From positions 12,028,001-12,092,000 of the forward strand of contig CAIIXF020000001.1 in assembly GCA_903813345.2 (NCBI GenBank): DNA of 64,000 nt. The letters run 5' to 3'. Shown here in pieces: positions 6,398-30,474 of this stretch. A program made the translations under genes and the position numbers. Numbering within the stretch: position 1 is the stretch's first letter; each line of letters opens with the position of its first letter. Under the pieces are notes generated by a model, which saw nothing but the letters and a program-made list of their open reading frames with translations, had not been told where the DNA came from and did no database searches. This DNA comes from Owenia fusiformis (lineage: Eukaryota).

Positions 6398-6447
6398 GAT
6401 TACTTCATGTATAAACGATAATGAGTCTTGGATTTAAATTCACATTT

Positions 6448-9400
6448 ATAAGTTTATAAGTTTATAAGTAATTTTCCGTCCTAGGCAGACATTGCCTGTA
6501 TGACAGTTCTGATACTTTTTGAAACTAACGTAGCTTGGGGGCTACTTGTACGCCAGCAATTTCGTAATTGAATTTTAAAGGATGGTGATACCAATGTGCA
6601 TCTAGGCGGTTCTTGAACTGGTTGACATGGACTGACTGCACTACGTACTCTGGGAGACTGTTCCAATTGTTTGTTACCCTGTGGCTGAAAGTGTTTTGTC
6701 TCATTGAGGTTTTGCAGTGGGCTTTTAGGAGTGGTTGGGAATTTCCTCTTCTATTGTGTGTTTCTCTTGCTTGGAAATTAGGTAATGTTGCTGTTGTGTT
6801 GACATCATAGTATGAGTTGATGTATTTGAACGTCTCTATCATATCACCACGTAGTCGTCTGTAGGCAAGTGTTGTAAGGTCTAGTGCCTTTAGTCTCTGG
6901 GGGTAGGGTAGAGCTTTAAGTGTTGGAACTATACGCGTTGCTCTTCTTTGTATTTTCTCTAGGGCTTCTATATCCTTCTTCATGTAGGGATTCCACACTG
7001 ATTGTGCAAACTCAAGTTTGGGTCTGACTAAGCCATTGAATAGTAATTTAAATGTATCAGTGTCCCAGTATGTAAAAGATCTTTTTACCATTCCAAGCAC
7101 TTTGTTTGCATTGTTTGCTATGGTTTTGACATGGTCACTGAATTTGAGATTTGTATCCATATAAACTCCAAGATCTCTTTCACAGTTACTATGTCTAATT
7201 GTAGATTTCTGGTCTGAGTTGTTGTCTTTCATCAGGTAGTCGAAATTCCTGTTACTTCTTCCAATATGTAGTACGCCACATTTTTTAGTATTGAATTTTA
7301 ATTGCCAATCTTGAGTCCATTTTTGAACATTGTCAATATCCCTCTGTAGTAAAGTTTGATCATCTATGGAGTTAACTTTTCTATGGAGTTTAGTATCGTC
7401 AGCGAACAGGCTTATATTACTGTGTTTAACAACGTTTGGCATGTCGTTGACATACAGTAGGTAGATCAAAGGTCCAATTACAGATCCCTGAGCTATTCCT
7501 GACCGTACAGGGGTCCATGGTGCTGATATGTCATTTATAACTACTCGTTGTTCTCTATGTTGGATGAAGTGCGAGAGCCACATCAGAGATTTACCCCTAA
7601 TTCCAAAATTTCTTTCCAGTTTGAGTAGGAGTCTTTGGTGGGGCACGGAATCAAACGCCTTGGCATAATCAAGATAAATAGCATCAGTAGCGCCCCCTGT
7701 ATCTAGTAGATTTGACCATGCTTCAACTATTTCCAGAAGATTAGTTGTACAAGACCTATTTGGCAGGAAACCATGTTGGGCTGTATTTAGGAGATTGTTT
7801 TTGTAAAGGTGTTCAATCAGTTGCCTTCTGATGATGCTTTCAAGTATTTTGCAGGTAATACATGTGAGACTTATTGGGCGGTAGTTGTTAGGACTTGACT
7901 TTGAACCGCTCTTATGTAGAGGGGTTATGTTAGCTCGTCTCCAGTCTTGTGGTAGGTATCCTTCATCTAGTGATTTCTTGTAGATTAAATAGAGGGGATG
8001 GGCTATAGTGTCTGCTAGTTCCTTGAGGATAATTCCTTTGATTTTGTCCGGTCCTGGTGATTTGTTGGTTTTCAGATTTTTTAGTTCAAGGGTCACTTCT
8101 CCTTCGCTTATCTGCCAGTTGGTAATATAAGACCCTATATATATGTAGTCTATGACTGGTATATTCTTTGTGTCCTCATCTGTAAAAACTTCTGCGAAGA
8201 ATTCGTTAAGGACTTCTGATTTTTCTAGGTTTGAATTTGTTTGTGTTCCATCCTTTCGATCAAGATCAGGGATTCCTACTCTGGATTTTTTCTTATTGTT
8301 GGCATATTTCCAGAATGGTTTTTGATTATATTTTATCGTTTTTGCCATTTTCTTTTCATATCTTCTTATGGCTTTTCTTACTTCTGACTTGGCTTGATTA
8401 CATGCTTTCCTAAATATCATTTTATCTTCTTCATTCAGAGTATCATCTTTCCTTTTTCGTGTCATCTTGTTAAAAGCTTTCCGTTTGGTTCTTATCGCCT
8501 TCATACACTCCGTATCTATCCACGGTTGTCTCTTTTTTCCCGGTGTAATTTTGGGGATATGTTTTTCTGTGGTTTCTTCTAATTTGGTTTTGAATATTGA
8601 CCAGCTTTCTTCAGTTGTTTGGCCTTCGAAGATTTGTTCCCAGTCTACACTTAAATCACTTCTCATTTTCTTGAAGTCTGCTTTCTGTAGAAGTTCTATC
8701 TTTTTCTCATTTGGTGTGAATTTTTGTGCACAGTTTATAGTCATAGAAAGCATGTGGTGATCACTTCTCCCCAGCGGTGGGTTGTTTTCTAGGTTGCTTA
8801 TTGTGTCTGGCTCATTTGTAAGTACTAGGTCTAGTAGATTTCCTTGTTGTCCTGTTCTGGTTCGTGTGGTTTTCATCTGATGTTGGGTCAAGAAGTTGTC
8901 ATCAATTATTTCAAGCAGGTATTCCGAAGTTTCCTTATTTGGTCCATTTAGCGCCGATTTGATTTCCCAGTCAATCTGTGGTAGGTTGAAATCTCCAACT
9001 ACTAACATGTGTTTGGGTGACTTTCCACATATTTCTGTGATTTGGTTTAGTACTGCAAATGAATTGTCTTTGGTACTGCTCGGGCTGCGATATATACATC
9101 CTATTGTACATTCATGTTGTCCAGATCCTACAGTGATCCATATAGATTCAGCTTCGTTTCCTGATAATTCAATTTGTGATGATTTGATGTGGGATTTCAC
9201 ATATATTATTGTTCCCCTGGTGTTTGTCGTATCAATATTGTGGAAACTGTTGTACATATCGAGTTTAAGTTCTTGTTCTAGAACTGGGTATTTCGAGTTT
9301 TTTGGTTTAATTTCTGTTAGAGCAATGATGTCTGGATCTTTCATCTGGATAATGACTTTTAATTCGTCTCGTTTGTTCATTAGTGAATCACAGTTTCCAT

Positions 9401-9989
9401 AGATGACTGTTAATGGTTTCAGGTTTCTGTCATTACTAGGATTAGTCAAATTTACAGCTTTTTCCCTTTGCTTTTTGTTGTTTCCTATTGTTTTATTTAC
9501 ACTATTTACACTATTTACAATTTTTTCCTTCTTCTGTCAGTCTTTTTTGCTACTGCTCCGGTAGCTTGTTTCTTCTATTATTTCAATTTGCCTGTCTGGA
9601 GTATGATATTCACTTGTTGTTTGAGGTAGGGGGGAGGGATTGTCTGCTCTGTGGTAGCTAGCTGATTTTTCTATCTCAATTCGTCTGTTTGAGTTTGGGA
9701 AATGTTGGTGAGGTTGCCATGGTGATCGTGGTGGATGGTTACTCGAGTCTCTAGCTTACAGCTAGACGAAACTTCATTGATTTCGTATGTACTGTGCTAC
9801 ACGCACCTACACGCACCTAGAACTCATTTTTAATAAATTTTATAAATATTTTTAAGAATATTAATCATATTTAGGATGAAGCGTTGCTTGTCTGGATTTA
9901 GATATTTCAAAATTTCATTTCGGAGTTTTGACACATGGTGAAATTTTCTCGCTGTAGCTAAAAATGGCTTCCGGTTCTGGACGTGAATA
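6448..9989 (-). mobile_element. CR1-type non-LTR retrotransposon, apparently full length
   Basis: Intact EN+RT ORF; short 3'UTR ending in (CTTATAAA)n octamer tail; candidate TSD ACATTT at 6442-6447 and 9990-9995; the 5' boundary is less certain than the 3' boundary. Confidence 0.85.
6525..9449 (-). CDS. LINE ORF2: APE-like endonuclease plus reverse transcriptase (CR1 clade)
   Basis: EN motifs ALTE, IYRSP, GDFN, LDLV, SDH; RT motifs QHGF, LDYAKAFD, GIAQGS, LFADD, RDLGV; CR1-like C-terminus RRLRGDMIETFK..FSHRVTNNWNSLP..FKNRLD; no stops in 974 codons; true start unclear. Confidence 0.97.
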   Translation of the reverse strand: MTNPSNDRNLKPLTVIYGNCDSLMNKRDELKVIIQMKDPDIIALTEIKPKNSKYPVLEQELKLDMYNSFHNIDTTNTRGTIIYVKSHIKSSQIELSGNEAESIWITVGSGQHECTIGCIYRSPSSTKDNSFAVLNQITEICGKSPKHMLVVGDFNLPQIDWEIKSALNGPNKETSEYLLEIIDDNFLTQHQMKTTRTRTGQQGNLLDLVLTNEPDTISNLENNPPLGRSDHHMLSMTINCAQKFTPNEKKIELLQKADFKKMRSDLSVDWEQIFEGQTTEESWSIFKTKLEETTEKHIPKITPGKKRQPWIDTECMKAIRTKRKAFNKMTRKRKDDTLNEEDKMIFRKACNQAKSEVRKAIRRYEKKMAKTIKYNQKPFWKYANNKKKSRVGIPDLDRKDGTQTNSNLEKSEVLNEFFAEVFTDEDTKNIPVIDYIYIGSYITNWQISEGEVTLELKNLKTNKSPGPDKIKGIILKELADTIAHPLYLIYKKSLDEGYLPQDWRRANITPLHKSGSKSSPNNYRPISLTCITCKILESIIRRQLIEHLYKNNLLNTAQHGFLPNRSCTTNLLEIVEAWSNLLDTGGATDAIYLDYAKAFDSVPHQRLLLKLERNFGIRGKSLMWLSHFIQHREQRVVINDISAPWTPVRSGIAQGSVIGPLIYLLYVNDMPNVVKHSNISLFADDTKLHRKVNSIDDQTLLQRDIDNVQKWTQDWQLKFNTKKCGVLHIGRSNRNFDYLMKDNNSDQKSTIRHSNCERDLGVYMDTNLKFSDHVKTIANNANKVLGMVKRSFTYWDTDTFKLLFNGLVRPKLEFAQSVWNPYMKKDIEALEKIQRRATRIVPTLKALPYPQRLKALDLTTLAYRRLRGDMIETFKYINSYYDVNTTATLPNFQARETHNRRGNSQPLLKAHCKTSMRQNTFSHRVTNNWNSLPEYVVQSVHVNQFKNRLDAHWYHHPLKFNYEIAGVQVAPKLR

Positions 9990-20811: not shown

Positions 20812-22129
20812 CACTTTGTTTGGTCTCTGTAATTGACAGATCTATGTATATGTGCTGCCATCTTTACAACCAGCAGAATCATAATTCTTTCAAGATTTAA
20901 AACTTTGTAATGAACAAGAGGCAAACTCTGATTCAGCATCTAATCAAAATATATTGTCAATTTCTTCAAGGAAAATACACTTTTATTAGTGTAATGTATA
21001 TGTACATGTCTATGTATTAAACAGCAATATCAGTTAGCTTCTGAATAGCAATTTGCTTCTTGATTTGTTGCAGGTTGCAAATGTTTGTTATTGGTGAAGA
21101 TCAGACCCTGTATGATATATGTATAATATCTAAGGAATGAATAAGGATAGGCCATTCAATACGGTGAAATTCAGCAGGAGTTGGACAGAATGTCAGTATA
21201 AAGCATGAACTGAAAGTGAGTGCATTTGTACTGACATACTGTCCACCGAGTATGATGTCACAGAGTGTGATGTCCCAGATGTGTTGTCACAATACAATTC
21301 AGATTCCTGGATGTGCATAATACACGATTGTTCATGTATGGAGAATTAGAGAAAGGCTATGCTGCATTCTGATTGGTTGAGAAACTCACTTAGAGAATGG
21401 TCATGTTTGACTATTATATAATATACATACCCCCTCAAAGTGAAAAATATGCCAGGTACTTATGGAAGCATAAAATTCAGTGAATGACATGCATTTTGAT
21501 TTGGAAGGTGAATTTTTTTATTGACCATATTCCCAGTATTGTGGTTGGTCAAGGGTAGATTGAAAAATTATGTCTAATTCAAATATTAGAAAGGGTAGTC
21601 AATAATTCAATGTAGAATCCAAATAAACCCATAACATATCGAAACGGTTTTTATTTTCATTAAGGAAGTGAGTTCCATGACAGTATGTTAACTGTAATAA
21701 TATTCTTGCATGTCAGAATGAAAGTATCAATTATGATATTTATGACCTTGACGTAAATAAGTTGTTATGATGTTGAACCAATCAGTGTATGTTTTTTCAC
21801 CAAAATAAAAAGTATGTATCCAGTAACATTCTGTCTAATCCATGAAATTAAATAGAATATATTTTAATTAAGAACTTAAGCCTTTTAAGGTTAATTTCTT
21901 ATTGATATGTGTGAAAGACCAACCATATAAAATCAAATATAGCATTCAGAAGAACTGTTTGAATGCTATTAATTCATTGTAAGTGTGTAAGCCCATTGAC
22001 ATTCTATAAATATTTTTATTGAGAGTGACTTACAATAGAAGGTAAAATTTTAGTAAAGTAAATTAGAATCATTTTTAGGACTTCACATACTGTATATTGA
22101 ATACTGTGATATTCATGTAATGAACAAAA

Positions 22130-22843
22130 ATGGCAAGATTTTATTTGAAACAATATTGGACAACTTTCATGGTGTTGAGTCTCTGGCTATTATGGACTAT
22201 GCTTCATTCAGCTGTTGATAAGTGTGTTGCTAATAATCCATCAACTCACTTGATTGGTGAAATAAAATTAGATGAGATCTTTAGAAAAGACATGAAAAGA
22301 TGGGACTCTAAAAAGCATGAATCTGTTAACCACTCTAAACAAATAGACACTGAATTGGCACCAACGTTTGGACAATATCTGACAAGTCTGAAGAAACGTA
22401 AAAGAAAACCAACTGCAACTAAAACCAAGAAGAGGATGAGTCAGAAAGGAAAGGATTTTAATGGAGATAGTAGAACAAAGAATAAAATTATTCAGATGAG
22501 TGGTCAGAATCATATTGAATCACTAAAAAAACACTCAAATCATGAAGGATATCATAACGAAATAGACCTTAATGATAAGACTCAGAAAGTTTCGAAAAAG
22601 AGAATTATCAAATTTGCAAATAAGTATCCTAACAATCTTTTGGAAGATCCCATAGATCCCAAAGGTAATGAAGGCACATATCAAGTAGACTTTCCAATGG
22701 ATGTTGATGATAATGTTGATGATAAGGATGATGATGCTTTGCTTGGTGAACTTGAGATAGACCTTGACTTTGAAGGAGTTGTTGCGTTGCATGAATTTCA
22801 GTCGTACAAGTACATGTATGTGCCAGAGCTAGAAGAGGAATGA
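22130..22843 (+). CDS. Uncharacterised 237-aa protein: N-terminal signal/anchor, basic middle, acidic C-terminus
   Basis: 714-nt ORF in AT-rich DNA; AAAATGG start with upstream in-frame stop; acceptor TTTTTAG at 22078; ATTAAA near 22927; no family recognised. Confidence 0.65.
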   Translation: MARFYLKQYWTTFMVLSLWLLWTMLHSAVDKCVANNPSTHLIGEIKLDEIFRKDMKRWDSKKHESVNHSKQIDTELAPTFGQYLTSLKKRKRKPTATKTKKRMSQKGKDFNGDSRTKNKIIQMSGQNHIESLKKHSNHEGYHNEIDLNDKTQKVSKKRIIKFANKYPNNLLEDPIDPKGNEGTYQVDFPMDVDDNVDDKDDDALLGELEIDLDFEGVVALHEFQSYKYMYVPELEEE

Positions 22844-25564: not shown

Positions 25565-26752
25565 TAACTGTATCATACCCATGAATTGAGGGGTTGCTTC
25601 CATTTGAGGGATTTCTTGTAGTTGTGCCTAAGCTTTACTTTCATTAATGAATGATGTTTTTGGGGCCCTGTTATTACTATGGTTACTAATGTTTTATTCC
25701 ATGGATTAATTAATTCTGACTCAACAATTTCTCATGTCAAGGATAAAATGGTATAAACACGCAATATGCAATTTTTATTATTTCATTGTTATTGGTTATT
25801 TATACGCAGTATCTATGTATACACCATGACAGACCTGTTATATCTCTTGCAATAACCATAAATGTCATTTCATGATACTTGATATCTTCATTTTATAGCG
25901 TTACATTCTGTTCTGAACCTCAACTTTGGCTGTTTTAGTCATGTTTTTGTTATTTAACTTTAAAGAGAGAATCAGATTTAGTGAGCATGCTAAACAAAAA
26001 ATTTTCAATTTTGGTAAAACCCAAAGTGCCTAAATATGACAAATTTTCAATTTACATAAATTATGTTTCGAAAAGTGTGTAATTTTTGTGCATGTTGTGA
26101 CTAAATCAAAATGAAATCAAACTCTGTATATTGATACAGCAATATCATTATAGCAAAAGCAAGGAAATGAAAAATGCCCTGGTAGTTGTATACGATACAG
26201 GCAATATTATTTATAACTTTTATTGACATATTGTATCATATCATGATAACATTAGTCAAAATCCTGTTATCATGATATATTTTGTACTTTAGTCTTTTGT
26301 ATTATGTCTTGATTTGTTATTAACATTGATCCTATGATGATTTACTAACTATTTGCTTTGTTCTGATGAGTCTGGATCTTAGTGATTAGAGCTTATATAC
26401 AGTGTATATATAATCTGAATTTACATGAACATTATCCTATATCAGTATTTGGCACTGTGTCACTTAGAAATTTCAGTTAGGGTGAAAACAATGTGAAACT
26501 AATCGGAAAATTTATGGTTCACTAATAGAGTAACCGGGTCTCTATGAAAAAAGTCCTATCCCTTCTCTCACATTAGTTTCATATTACCCTTCATATTTTT
26601 AACAGAGAAACTCTATAGAGGTTTTGGAATAATCTGCTGTTAAGTATAAGTAATAATGAGTTTGTCTAATAATATATATAAAATCTTTTATACAAAATGA
26701 TGTATATTTGGCACAGTCTGTATGGATACACTGAACAAAATCTTACTCATAC

Positions 26753-27093
26753 AATTGAAAATTTAGTCACATAGCTCTCCCTGTTAAAGAGGGATATGTC
26801 GATTATGATGTTTTTAGTAACAGTGCATGTCTCTTAACAGAAGCTCAAGTAAAGTGGTTTCTGTGTCATACAAGGATTTCAATGATGTCTTGTTTCTATG
26901 ACACAATCATGTACATTTTATTAGACCTATAAATAATCAAATTGAAAATAAAATGAAATCTGTATTATATATCACAAAAACTCCAGAAACCACTTTATTT
27001 GAGCTTCTGTTAAGAGACATGCACTGATACTAAAAACATAATAATCAACATATCCCTCTTGAACAGGCAGAGCTATGTGACTAAATTTTCAAT
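26753..27093. repeat. Inverted repeat with arms of about 110 bp (MITE remnant)
   Basis: AATTGAAAATTTAGTCACATAGCTCT..GTGGTTTCTG versus CAGAAACCAC..AGAGCTATGTGACTAAATTTTCAATT. Confidence 0.8.
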
Positions 27094-27891
27094 TTTAGAT
27101 ATCTTCTTAGTCTTGAAACAAATAAAGATTTTTCATTTTGAATTATTTTTCATTTACATTAGTTTGACATCAGTCAGTGCCCCTCCAGTATCTATGCTAT
27201 GCCTCAGTGGCAATCTCCTTAAGTGATTGATCTGTGAGTTGTTTCCTATAACGTGGATGTAACCCTAGTATCTTATTCTATTTTTGTAGTCAGTGTGAGG
27301 TTAAATAACTCATTCTCTATTGTGCGAATTGATTTATAGTGCCTGCCAGTTTATCAGCATGGGAGCTTTATAATTTAATGTACTCTGATTATAGTTGATC
27401 TGTTTCCAAATACTGTAACATTAAAAAGTCGTTTCGGAACATCAAGGCTGAGTAAAAAATTAATTACAGGATATAGATGACTTTAATATAATACATACAG
27501 TACAATAAAATGATACATTATTGAACAATCATCATATATTATTTATTTTGTGACAATGTAATGTGACTAAGTATTTTTCAAAAGGTATAGGCTATGCTGA
27601 GTGCCATAGACTTTTTCTGACTTTGGTTAAAATAAGCTTGTACTTACTTATATGATTCCTAAATATGCTTTAATTTTTTAACAAAATGAGGTAATTCATC
27701 AACAATACACTGAAAAGGTATTCTTGTGAGATATCTAGAATTTTTTCTTGAAGGTGCTCATTGAACTCAAACGAGCTTTATGTTAACTCATCGTGCCATG
27801 GAATAATAATTTCTATTTTCTAGCTTATACGTCAATTATTATAGAAGTTAGACCAATCTGACATCCTTGTTTAGTGTACTTTAAGTTTACT

Positions 27892-27929
27892 CATGGGCTT
27901 TCGCGAAAGCTTTCTCTTGAAAGCCCATG
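27892..27929. mobile_element. 38-bp micro-MITE, same family as 5598-5627
   Basis: CATGGGCTTTC..GAAAGCCCATG flanked by GTTTACT/GTTTAAT. Confidence 0.7.
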
Positions 27930-27941
27930 GTTTAATGCATG

Positions 27942-28571
27942 TCATAATAGTTTTTCTTGAACCGCATGATGCTCGAATATAGGAGAGTTTCCTTCAGATT
28001 TATCTTCATCAGAATCAGCCTCGATCCAAGGTATATTAATCAAAGTATCTGTAAAATCTTTGGGCTGATCCTGCATACATAGTACCTCATCAGATATGGT
28101 CATTCGGGAACTACAAGGCAATATAGATGTTTCTTGTAAATCTGATATGCTACATTTATCATTTATACTGCCGTTGCAACTAAAATTGGTATCACTTAAG
28201 ATTTTATCAATGATAGATATTGATATTATCCTCCTATTTTGGTTTCCTTTTTTGAGAGTACTTGGTATATATGATGTTATATTTTGATTTTGATATCGTT
28301 GAGTCGCTTTAAGGGATTCAAGACCTGAGTCGACAGATTCGCTGTACGATTTATGAAGTCTCGTGTTATTTACTACTGTTTGCCTTGATCCTCTGTCATC
28401 CTTAATGCTGAGGGATATTGTTCTGGGTACTACATGCATACCAATGGGTGTTAGGAGCTGCTCCTCTCTATCCATGTGGTCAGTTCTCACATACTGTAAG
28501 GCCTTCTGTGTTGGGTATTGGATCATTGTAACAAATGTATCATTCTTTGAGACACATTGTCTGGCCTGTTG
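27942..28571 (-). CDS. 209-codon open frame continuing in frame after the UGA of 28572-28913 (candidate readthrough extension)
   Basis: TGA CAA CAG GCC AGA CAA TGT GTC TCA AAG AAT GAT ACA TTT GTT ACA ATG ATC.. open to TGA at 27944-27942; low-complexity/disordered composition with DSGLES and terminal EKLL. Confidence 0.6.
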   Translation of the reverse strand, partial: QQARQCVSKNDTFVTMIQYPTQKALQYVRTDHMDREEQLLTPIGMHVVPRTISLSIKDDRGSRQTVVNNTRLHKSYSESVDSGLESLKATQRYQNQNITSYIPSTLKKGNQNRRIISISIIDKILSDTNFSCNGSINDKCSISDLQETSILPCSSRMTISDEVLCMQDQPKDFTDTLINIPWIEADSDEDKSEGNSPIFEHHAVQEKLL

Positions 28572-28913
28572 TCATAATAGTGTTTCCTCTTGACTAGGGG
28601 CCCGAGCATCTTCTTCAACAACAATTTGGAGGATCTCATCCTCCTCTTCGTCATCATTATACTGTCTTGGATCATTATCATCCATATCTTCATTGGAGCT
28701 ACTGTCATCAAACTCGGGGACATCATGAATTACATGGTCATCAGTGTCAGTTATAATAGCATTTCGGTTAACTGTCTCCACATGTGTTTTATAGCAACAG
28801 TGTACTATAATCGCTATGACGATTATTGCTGTAAGGAGCAGTATCACAACTATGATTGTTATCTCCATGGAGTGGCTTGTTCCCAAGCTAGGTTGAACTC
28901 CATTAGGGTCCAT
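28572..28913 (-). CDS. Small single-pass membrane protein (113 aa) with acidic tail
   Basis: Hydrophobic ITIIVVILLLTAIIVIAIIV, then HCCYK, a D/E-rich tail and terminal EETLL; TATATAA at 29008-29002; paralog at 30280-30474. Confidence 0.75.
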   Translation of the reverse strand: MDPNGVQPSLGTSHSMEITIIVVILLLTAIIVIAIIVHCCYKTHVETVNRNAIITDTDDHVIHDVPEFDDSSSNEDMDDNDPRQYNDDEEEDEILQIVVEEDARAPSQEETLL

Positions 28914-30279
28914 TTAGAAACAATGTTTTGTGGGCTCTGTTAATGCCTCATATATTTTTTCAGTAATGGGCTCCAAGTGCCCTCATCCATTTAAATCCCA
29001 CTTATATATTGTCCCTCATGTGCAACCTACATCTGAGTGAGGTCAGTTTCTTTAGGAACACCATTAAACTAAAAGCTTATATATATTTTCATCAGTGTCT
29101 TACATAAATAATGTTAAGTCAACCAACCCTCATGTCATCATTAATGCTCTCTGTATGAGGATTAAATTCTGAGAATACAGAGAATCATTAATTTTCTGTT
29201 CTGGAATTTTCAGCAGTGCAGAATGTTGCTTTAATCCCTTATGATAGCTTCTCAGTGTCTAATTGAAATATGATTCATGGATCAATGGCCTCAATAGTGA
29301 GATATCCCGTTGTATTATAAACCGTCTAACCATCTCAGATATGATCACATATTTCTTTAACACACGCAAATCAATCTGCATCTAATTCATCCAACTCACA
29401 GACCCATCACTTTGTGCAGATATTAACCTATCGCTCTTATTAGATCACCTAAATTATTTAAAATCGATCAATAATTTCATTATATCAACTGATATCTTCG
29501 CAATCTGGCAAAACTCCTGCTTGGTATGTTACATTGTCAAGAGACTGGTTATGTCAAACGAAGAGTTAAAATAATGATTTTACTATTATAAAATTGTCAT
29601 TTCCGATCTTGTCTTATCTCGGAAATAAATGCATTTGTTAATGATTTTGCCATTCACTGAGCTCTTTACTCAATTATCTTGAGGACATATTTTATTTGCA
29701 TTTAATTGTTGTTTTTACGAGTGATGAAAATGTTTTATTTTCTTTTTCTATAGTAATAATGATCGGAGAGTATTCACATCCTTAGATATTGTTATCCTAT
29801 GAAGTGTCTAAATAACTTGTGAGTTGTCCTCAGAATATTAGTCAAAGTTATGACTTTCAATAATGCCTTTTATATATAGGCTATGTATTGAATGTCATTG
29901 TCCTTTCCATTGATGGACTTAATTGCTCTTTCATTAGCTGGAACAATTGAAGCTGTACTTTCAGCTTGGTTATTGTCTTTGTATTACTGTGTCCTAATTG
30001 TGTCAATTAGCAAATGCCATGTTAAATGCCATTTGCCCGAAGAACTTTTGAATACGTTGTGATATTTTTGTCCGTAAATTACATGTGTTTTTACTGTTTA
30101 TATGTAAGAAAGTTATACTTTTATCAGTGAATCATTGCATTTGTCCAAAGAATACCTGATTCTTATTGTAAAGTTAATTTAAGATTGGTCATCAATATTA
30201 ACTTGTACATAAGTTTGTTTCACAGTTCCACATTGTTTTTAATCTGTTCTCTATCTTTAGGTGATTAGTTTTAATTCTC

Positions 30280-30474
30280 CTAGAGCTCAACTACAACAGT
30301 TAAAGGTGTCCTGTCAGTGGTTCCATAATTATCATCATCTTCTTCCTCTATAATCTCATCCTCTTTCATAATATTCTTATTTTCCAGATGTTTAATGTAA
30401 CACGTATGGAGCACACCTACTAGAATTCCTATTGATGTAGTAGTCAGAATGATCACAATGATAATTGCCTCCAT
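30280..30474 (-). CDS. Small single-pass membrane protein (64 aa), paralog of 28572-28913
   Basis: MEAIIIVIILTTTSIGILVGVLHTCYIKHLE aligns without gaps to MEITIIVVILLLTAIIVIAIIVHCCYKTHVE; acceptor TTATTTTTCAG upstream at 30670. Confidence 0.7.
   Translation of the reverse strand: MEAIIIVIILTTTSIGILVGVLHTCYIKHLENKNIMKEDEIIEEEDDDNYGTTDRTPLTVVVEL

Follow-up and report, generated by a model that had tools for sequence, protein, structure and literature searches.

In a 64,000-nucleotide (nt) stretch of the Owenia fusiformis genome (contig CAIIXF020000001.1, positions 12,028,001 to 12,092,000 of the forward strand; hereafter the window, from whose first letter all coordinates are counted), we found that a minus-strand open reading frame (ORF) for a small membrane protein, ORF1, is followed in the same frame, behind a single TGA with C as the next base, by 209 further open codons, which we call ORF2. 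The reading to which we incline, tentatively and while judging it somewhat short of probable, is that ORF2 is translated as the tail of a low-level readthrough isoform that is kept by selection. Both stops of this frame lie in copies of the same 17-nt sequence, and this repeat bears on how the arrangement arose and on the explanations that compete with readthrough.

A long open frame behind a UGA-C stop

The window is AT-rich (30-40% G+C), and the argument starts from the following features.

28572..28913, minus strand: ORF1, 113 codons plus TGA; N-terminus of 15-17 amino acids (aa), hydrophobic segment, juxtamembrane HCCYK, acidic tail ending in QEETLL
28803..28862, minus strand: predicted transmembrane (TM) segment of ORF1, residues 18-37; Kyte-Doolittle maximum (19-residue window) of 3.51 at residue 18
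27945..28571, minus strand: ORF2, 209 codons; rich in Ser/Ile/Asp/Gln/Thr, predicted to be disordered, ends in QEKLL

A sequence-only reading, made from the letters of this DNA and a list of its ORFs, had proposed that two separately listed ORFs (28572-28913 and 27942-28526) share one frame and are split only by one TGA and 15 sense codons, and the coordinates confirmed this. ORF1 runs from 28913 to 28572 on the minus strand and its 113 codons are closed by TGA at 28574-28572, with C at the +4 position (TGA-CAA); the same frame then stays open for 209 codons, from 28571 to 27945, up to a second TGA at 27944-27942. The whole span therefore comprises 972 nt or 324 codons, with stops at codons 114 and 324 only, and the first in-frame ATG of ORF2 lies at 28526, after the 15 sense codons. 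The stop context TGA-CAA and a small inverted repeat behind it, both named in the earlier reading, were likewise present in the sequence.

The open length was correctly described as very unusual. Stop-to-stop ORFs in the window have a mean length of 14.1 codons and reach at least 200 codons in only 3 of 8449 cases, and the probability of 209 open codons is 6e-7 at the stop frequency of the window or 2.7e-7 at the local composition (about 3e-7 to 6e-7 overall). Over these 630 nt the remaining frames contain 12, 26, 13, 7 and 12 stops, the antisense frames across ORF2 contain 7-13, and no tandem repeats that could hold the frame open were found in the ORF2 region. Against random sequence matched in composition and free of stops, ORF2 codon usage scored z = 3.0 (9 of 3000 simulations equally high) with a table built from ORF1, the paralog described below and a third local ORF, and z = 2.95 with a table from ORF1 and the paralog alone. 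With a codon table from the ORF of a long interspersed nuclear element (LINE) in the window, ORF2 scored z = 1.2 and ORF1 z = 1.5, which is a comparable range. Taken together, open length, stops in the other frames and codon usage suggest that ORF2 is coding sequence, at present or until very recently. The shared frame alone is a weak argument, since in about 11% of cases an unrelated downstream ORF would also lie in frame, its ATG preceded by 15 open codons. The protein collection that we searched already holds the ATG-started, 194-aa version of ORF2 as a separate entry (P0001).

The stop codon in a second haplotype and in RNA

Over the interval 26800-29800 we compared the window with the raw reads of two RNA runs, X21 and X23, and with a contig set, X2.

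28572..28574, minus strand: first stop TGA, followed by C at 28571; identical in the X2 contig and with no RNA-read difference in X21 and X23
27942..27944, minus strand: second stop TGA, also followed by CA

A contig of 2898 nt from X2 covers 27740-29800 and differs from the window at 13 sites (over 2061 nt) and by 2 indels, and so represents another haplotype. The independent contig carries the same TGA and no RNA read has another letter there, so that the stop on which the sequence-only reading depended withstood comparison with other reads and another allele. None of the 342 positions of ORF1 differ in the X2 contig; ORF2 is intact in it, and 3 of 630 positions differ, two synonymously and one with a change from V to L.

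Altogether 29 RNA reads aligned (8 from X21, 21 from X23), all in one orientation with the first mate on the plus strand, which in usual stranded libraries corresponds to minus-strand RNA. The X23 reads span 27204-29021 without a gap, and the 100-nt bin containing the stop is covered at a depth of 1.4 in X21 and X23 each. At a depth of 1-2 reads, no joint was seen over the two ORFs in either run. X23 showed nine differences from the window, eight of which are shared with the X2 contig and the ninth of which (28791) is synonymous, and X21 showed two, at 28937-28938; none of them falls at 28572-28574.

Read depth and pattern scans bear on the extent of the transcript.

29001..29008, minus strand: TATA-like box TATATAAG, about 90 nt upstream of the ORF1 ATG; putative promoter element
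27542..27547, minus strand: AATAAA, the sole canonical poly(A) signal in the RNA-covered 3' region
27892..27929, minus strand: hairpin with an 11-bp stem and an inner 4-bp stem, 13 nt past the second stop and just after ATTAAA at 27936-27931

RNA depth begins in the bin 28921-29021 and is zero in 29022-29223; together with TATATAAG at 29008-29001, this suggests that the gene is probably intronless and starts near 28970. At the other end, X23 depth extends to about 27204, partly from a repeat family with loose ends at 27570. Four X23 reads continue from 27570 into unlike sequence, and the motif ATGTGACTAA (27561-27575) recurs at 27075 and 26758. These loose ends and the recurring motif indicate that part of the RNA cover of the 3' untranslated region (UTR) comes from other copies of the repeat. 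Further downstream lies a foldback resembling a miniature inverted-repeat transposable element (MITE), with 114-nt arms (26750-26863 and 26984-27097) that are 94% complementary and 120 nt apart; X2 contigs at this foldback (26750-27097) are fragmented and deeper, as for a repeat family. The hairpin at 27892-27929 has a folding energy of -26.3 kcal/mol (z = -5.2, none of 200 shuffles equally stable), and its position would suit a 3'-end or stalling element. The frame past the second stop continues for 17 further codons and ends inside the 3' arm of this hairpin.

Routes to translation of the downstream frame

Twenty ATGs lie between the start of ORF1 and the ORF2 ATG at 28526, and ORF2 lacks a hydrophobic segment, which makes scanning or reinitiation unlikely; ORF1 is moreover too long for efficient reinitiation. 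A splice scan with a crude consensus, rather than a trained model, returned one decent donor (28733) and no in-frame donor/acceptor pair, and no AG with at least 65% upstream pyrimidines between the stop and 27960. This agrees with the sequence-only reading, which had seen no convincing splice pair that would remove the stop, and no RNA joint was found. One candidate splice, from the donor-like GTCAAG at 28593 to the AG in the downstream copy of the 17-nt repeat, would give a protein ending in ..PKKLL; it was rejected, as no read carries it and its acceptor fails the pyrimidine test. With a downstream start, splicing and selenocysteine (see below) all unsupported, readthrough is the only route to ORF2 on the mRNA as seen.

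The encoded proteins and their relatives

We infer that the ORF1 protein has its N-terminus outside and its C-terminus inside, based on the K/H residues past the predicted TM segment. ORF2 reaches a hydropathy maximum of 0.92 and thus has no hydrophobic segment, and its Atlas model, at a predicted local distance difference test (pLDDT) of 0.34, is consistent with disorder. It contains the string DSGLES (residue 195 of the fusion) and the acidic cluster SDEDKSE, which may be a degron and kinase sites, respectively. The sequence-only reading overstated its case in saying that the short form closes on a dileucine motif: the patterns [DE]xxxL[LI] and DxxLL, in their commonly used definitions, have 0 matches in the 323-residue product, at either end, and both forms simply end in two leucines.

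A neighbouring gene for a related protein gives the family context.

30280..30474, minus strand: paralog built like ORF1, 64 codons (30474-30283) plus TAG; TM segment, H-x-CY, acidic EDEI..EEED tail

The paralog lies 1.4 kb upstream of ORF1, with 40% identity over 47 aa (tblastn E 3e-6 and 5e-7, BLASTP E 0.004). Its Met1 aligns with Met16 of ORF1, the EDEI..EEED stretch is common to both, and it is indeed short, as the earlier reading had said, with 64 codons and a TAG that is followed by many stops.

Searches for more distant relatives returned little. ORF2 found only itself in the protein collection, and ORF1 had no match with E values as high as 10 allowed. Among 1.84e9 representatives, the 323-aa product with its stop written as X matched nothing but itself, and 5.8e9 clusters likewise held no relative; neither ORF1 nor ORF2 had a match in the JGI metagenome loci. 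Pfam gave nothing below E 0.05 for the 323-aa product or the paralog, and the best feature score in an Atlas look-up was 0.79, with every structure at a TM-score <0.35. Since the best matches of the window LINE ORF in the same collection are only 41-42% identical, the collection holds no close kin of this genome, and blank homologue searches therefore say little.

A 17-nt repeat at both stops

28570..28586, minus strand: repeat copy 1 GAAACACTATTATGACA (family D6), comprising the last ORF1 codons, TGA and 2 nt
27940..27956, minus strand: repeat copy 2 GAAAAACTATTATGACA (family D6), holding the second stop

The copies GAAACACTATTATGACA and GAAAAACTATTATGACA differ at a single position of the 17, their spacing is exactly 630 nt (210 codons), and the 12-mer ACTATTATGACA is confined to them within the 64-kb window. 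The chance of at least 13 of the 14 non-stop positions matching at this pre-defined pair is about 6e-7, or about 7e-4 if identical amino acids are granted. Similarity at the offset of 630 is limited to about 30 nt around the stops, and ORF1 and ORF2 aligned with one another by BLASTP only at E 5.5. A diverged large tandem duplication was ruled out on these grounds, the two ORFs being otherwise unrelated.

The repeat around both stops indicates that a single event made the junction: either a 613-nt block was inserted and 17 nt of its target were duplicated, or a short patch was copied from one end to the other. The direct repeats that flank the block, 17 nt and 16/17 identical, are of target-site-duplication size (about 7-20 nt). 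The block itself has no A-tail, no terminal inverted repeats and no (ACTTATAA)3-type tail at either end; there is no second copy of the ORF2 block in the window and no Pfam domain in ORF2, and the X2 contig passes through the block unbranched.

The window also contains a LINE, whose ORF (6525-9536, minus strand) runs uninterrupted for 1003 codons and encodes endonuclease (APE) and reverse-transcriptase domains. Its tail near 6445-6470 consists of three ACTTATAA copies rather than poly-A, and the element may be active.

Age and constraint

Of random substitutions in ORF2, 4.8% create a stop. We modelled the decay of the frame with 0.1-0.2 indels per substitution, the flanks having 2 indels to 10 substitutions. 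Under this model a neutral frame of 627 nt is broken in 50% of cases after 0.5-0.9% divergence and in 91-98% after 3%, and the probability that a neutral ORF2 is still intact falls from 0.45-0.27 at 1% divergence to 0.09-0.02 at 3%. Given such rapid neutral decay, a relic must be very young. For comparison, the flanks diverge by 0.92% between the haplotypes (10/1089). The TGA is present in every source compared, and the two repeat copies already differ at 1 of 17 positions.

Within the 972-nt span there are four polymorphic sites, three synonymous and one V-to-L (P = 0.03 for at least 3 of 4 synonymous); for ORF2 alone, with 2 of 3 synonymous, the probability of at least 2 of 3 is 0.11. These numbers lean towards constraint and are not significant.

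Weighing the explanations

In the reading that we favour, the gene would be intronless and restricted to its lineage, and its product a small protein that crosses the membrane once, the short N-terminus lying outside and the acidic tail in the cytosol. The UGA-C stop would act as a weak gate, at which most ribosomes terminate and yield the 113-aa form ending in ..QEETLL, while a small share, probably well under a few percent, would decode UGA with a near-cognate tRNA and translate 209 more codons. The long form would thereby gain a lengthy cytosolic tail, disordered and rich in Ser/Thr and acidic residues, with two leucines once more at its end (..QEKLL), and the tail frame would stay open because this minor isoform is somewhat useful. 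An in-frame block of about 630 nt would have been joined behind the original stop along with a copy of the last 17 nt of the gene. Readthrough above background and selection keeping the tail are the two parts of this proposal that go beyond the data. A more specific version, in which the stop-gated tail was born in one step, with a coding block of about 630 nt and the copied last codons and stop arriving together, both isoforms ending in E-x-L-L-COOH and the copied UGA-C setting their ratio, appears improbable to us.

The sequence-only reading had likewise proposed that one mRNA yields a short and a long isoform. What stands of that proposal is a real TGA, RNA in one orientation without a joint and a coding-like ORF2; a strong readthrough motif or structure, in contrast, was not found. 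In the available parts of PMC4132726 and PMC5100048, a UGA with C after it is described as a weak stop and a lengthy second ORF as a feature that supports readthrough.

A number of observations weigh against readthrough under selection. The context is UGA-CAA-CAG and lacks UGA-CUAG, and CAACAG fits CARYYA at 3 of 6 positions, the first three letters only, although all six letters mattered in the assay described in part of PMC4132726. The inverted repeat past the stop is small.

28550..28562, minus strand: inverted repeat AGACA-ATG-TGTCT, 10 nt past the stop, seen in the sequence

No stable structure follows: the 126 nt from the stop fold with z = +0.29, and 123 of 200 shuffled sequences were equally or more stable. 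With known stimulators absent, the leak would be expected at the ordinary UGA-C level. Moreover, since the second stop lies in the same 17-mer, the leaky context of the first stop appears to be a copy and not a tuned signal. The paralog has no in-frame extension, and as its end lies within about 5 residues of the end of ORF1, the short form looks like the old state of the family. With an RNA depth of 1-2 reads, a minor form that is spliced or edited could have been missed; there are too few polymorphisms, ORF2 with 3/630 not differing significantly from the flanks with 10/1089 (Fisher p = 0.40); and no relative of either half turned up in any collection, which leaves no conserved stop and no ratio of nonsynonymous to synonymous rates (dN/dS) to draw on. 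Lastly, abundant readthrough is reported only for insects and crustaceans (Pancrustacea) in the part of PMC5100048 available to us.

It is possible, if on balance doubtful, that ORF2 has no useful translation and is open only because the event that placed the stop is very recent, in which case the frame will decay. A 613-nt coding fragment could have inserted after the original stop and duplicated 17 nt of its target, or a patch of about 20 nt with the end of the gene could have been copied into what was then a longer ORF. Seen this way, the 17-nt repeat at both stops, 630 nt apart, is a mutational footprint and not a tuned signal; the ancestral look of the short form and the lack of a readthrough motif or structure fit as well, the in-frame position is a coincidence of 1 in 3, and an active-looking LINE lies within the window. 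Recent nonsense changes are also the standard false positive of readthrough screens, as set out in part of PMC5100048. Such a relic would, however, have to be younger than about 1-3% neutral divergence, whereas the TGA is found in every source compared and the repeat copies have already diverged. For the insertion route, the block lacks the marks of a retroelement and occurs only once in the window, the X2 contig is unbranched, and a foreign fragment would need to be coding, in sense orientation, in frame and open to its last base.

Rather unlikely, in our estimate, is that ORF2 is reached by another route, namely a minor splice form (using the membrane part of ORF1 or another upstream exon), a transcript starting inside ORF1, or adenosine-to-inosine (A-to-I) editing of UGA to UGG. 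At a depth of 1-2 reads minor forms could go unnoticed, a donor-like GTAATT is present at 28733 and TATA-like strings inside ORF1 at 28793, the ATG at 28526 has A at -3, and published screens had to exclude the same alternatives by hand (described in part of PMC5100048). On the other hand, no run contains a joint and the crude consensus gave no suitable acceptor or in-frame pair; all RNA-read differences are accounted for, with none at 28572-28574; a transcript starting after 28793 would still have many upstream ATGs; and ORF2 alone would be a soluble disordered protein without relatives. That UGA is read as a residue, through selenocysteine or a variant code, is very improbable. The three consecutive stops of the frame are indeed all TGA, but a scan of 26800-29100 that admitted E values up to 10 brought no selenocysteine insertion sequence (SECIS) or other Rfam family close to its gathering score, and at gathering scores none was found in the window. 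All that the local scan matched was the long MITE-like hairpin, to plant miRNA models and far below thresholds, and the whole window gave no family and no tRNA. The hairpin past the second stop is fully Watson-Crick and not a kink-turn, the feature of SECIS elements; as to a variant code, the standard code leaves both the 1003-codon LINE ORF and ORF1 uninterrupted, and TAG closes the paralog. A ciliate-type code or an excised segment, which the flanking repeat and the TGA-only stops had brought to mind, was rejected on the same grounds and because the block is present in RNA. We can practically dismiss an assembly or sequencing error as the source of the stop, the same TGA being found in an independent contig from another study and another haplotype, with no other letter in the RNA reads.

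Relation to known readthrough genes

If real, the long isoform would place this gene in a known class of readthrough genes, with the duplicated stop context as its one unusual point. In that class, L-MPZ has an extension much shorter than 209 residues. Similar to the product proposed here, L-MPZ spans the membrane once and gains a longer cytosolic C-terminus through readthrough, giving a minor long and a main short isoform, but it is conserved in tetrapods and shown at the protein level (PMC7070019; this and the other published comparisons draw on parts of the cited articles). AQP4ex, OPRL1, OPRK1 and MAPK10 were compared as membrane proteins with a UGA stop and C at +4 (PMC4132726, PMC6444679). 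They have a conserved CUAG and extensions of 13-34 residues, in contrast to CAAC and 209 residues here, and the conserved part of their extensions is the C-terminal end; here too the extension ends in the motif of the short form (PMC4132726, PMC6444679). LDHBx and MDH1x, in which readthrough exposes a short C-terminal sorting signal, are alike at the level of the class; in these proteins a few residues reveal a peroxisomal signal, whereas both isoforms here end in -LL and no new terminal signal is obvious (PMC4359377, PMC5133446).

Also close in architecture are the readthrough genes of Drosophila and Anopheles (Jungreis et al. 2011, 2016; Dunn et al. 2013; PMC5100048, PMC3840789), which share UGA-C, a frame-0 second ORF of >100 codons and the same mRNA, and also an extension that is likely disordered with short motifs. 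In the Drosophila and Anopheles screens, exceptionally long second ORFs were accepted on length alone, yet the calls rest on multi-species coding signatures and on stops conserved beyond close relatives, and here there is no relative (PMC5100048, PMC3840789). Recent nonsense substitutions and newborn C-termini (PMC5100048, PMC4494051) resemble the present case in having coding-looking sequence past a stop in one species only. They differ in that the stop described here lies in a 17-nt copy of the downstream end and is not a point change of a sense codon (PMC5100048, PMC4494051).

Neighbouring features

A second block of RNA in the same orientation (minus-strand RNA) covers 29224-29728, between the paralog and ORF1, and is separated from the ORF1 transcript by a 200-nt gap of zero depth. 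No long ORF falls within this second block, a TATATATAAAAGG string is found near 29880, and the block may be the 3' UTR of the paralog, a separate non-coding transcript or a 5' exon. Upstream of the paralog we noted two inverted-repeat pairs, 30774-30789/30957-30972 (16 nt, 100%) and 31368-31399/31469-31500 (32 nt, 88%); both have a high G+C content that sets them apart from the adjacent sequence, and they probably represent small foldback elements. On the plus strand, at 22124-22843, lies the longest open frame of the window outside transposons, with 239 codons, a hydrophobic start, a very acidic end and no Pfam family; this could be a further orphan gene or one large exon.

Implications for the gene and its family

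Under either reading of ORF2, the gene is best modelled as the 113-aa protein, and the 209-codon frame should be flagged on it and not annotated as a separate 194-aa gene. Should ORF2 prove a relic, it would be an ordinary young structural change in a 3' UTR. If the one-step birth were true, a readthrough extension would have been caught arising in an orphan gene, perhaps outside the clade of insects and crustaceans, in which such extensions are common. Production of the long isoform and selection for it would make this a new long-extension readthrough gene in an orphan membrane-protein family, and its duplicated stop context would offer a rare view of the birth of an extension.

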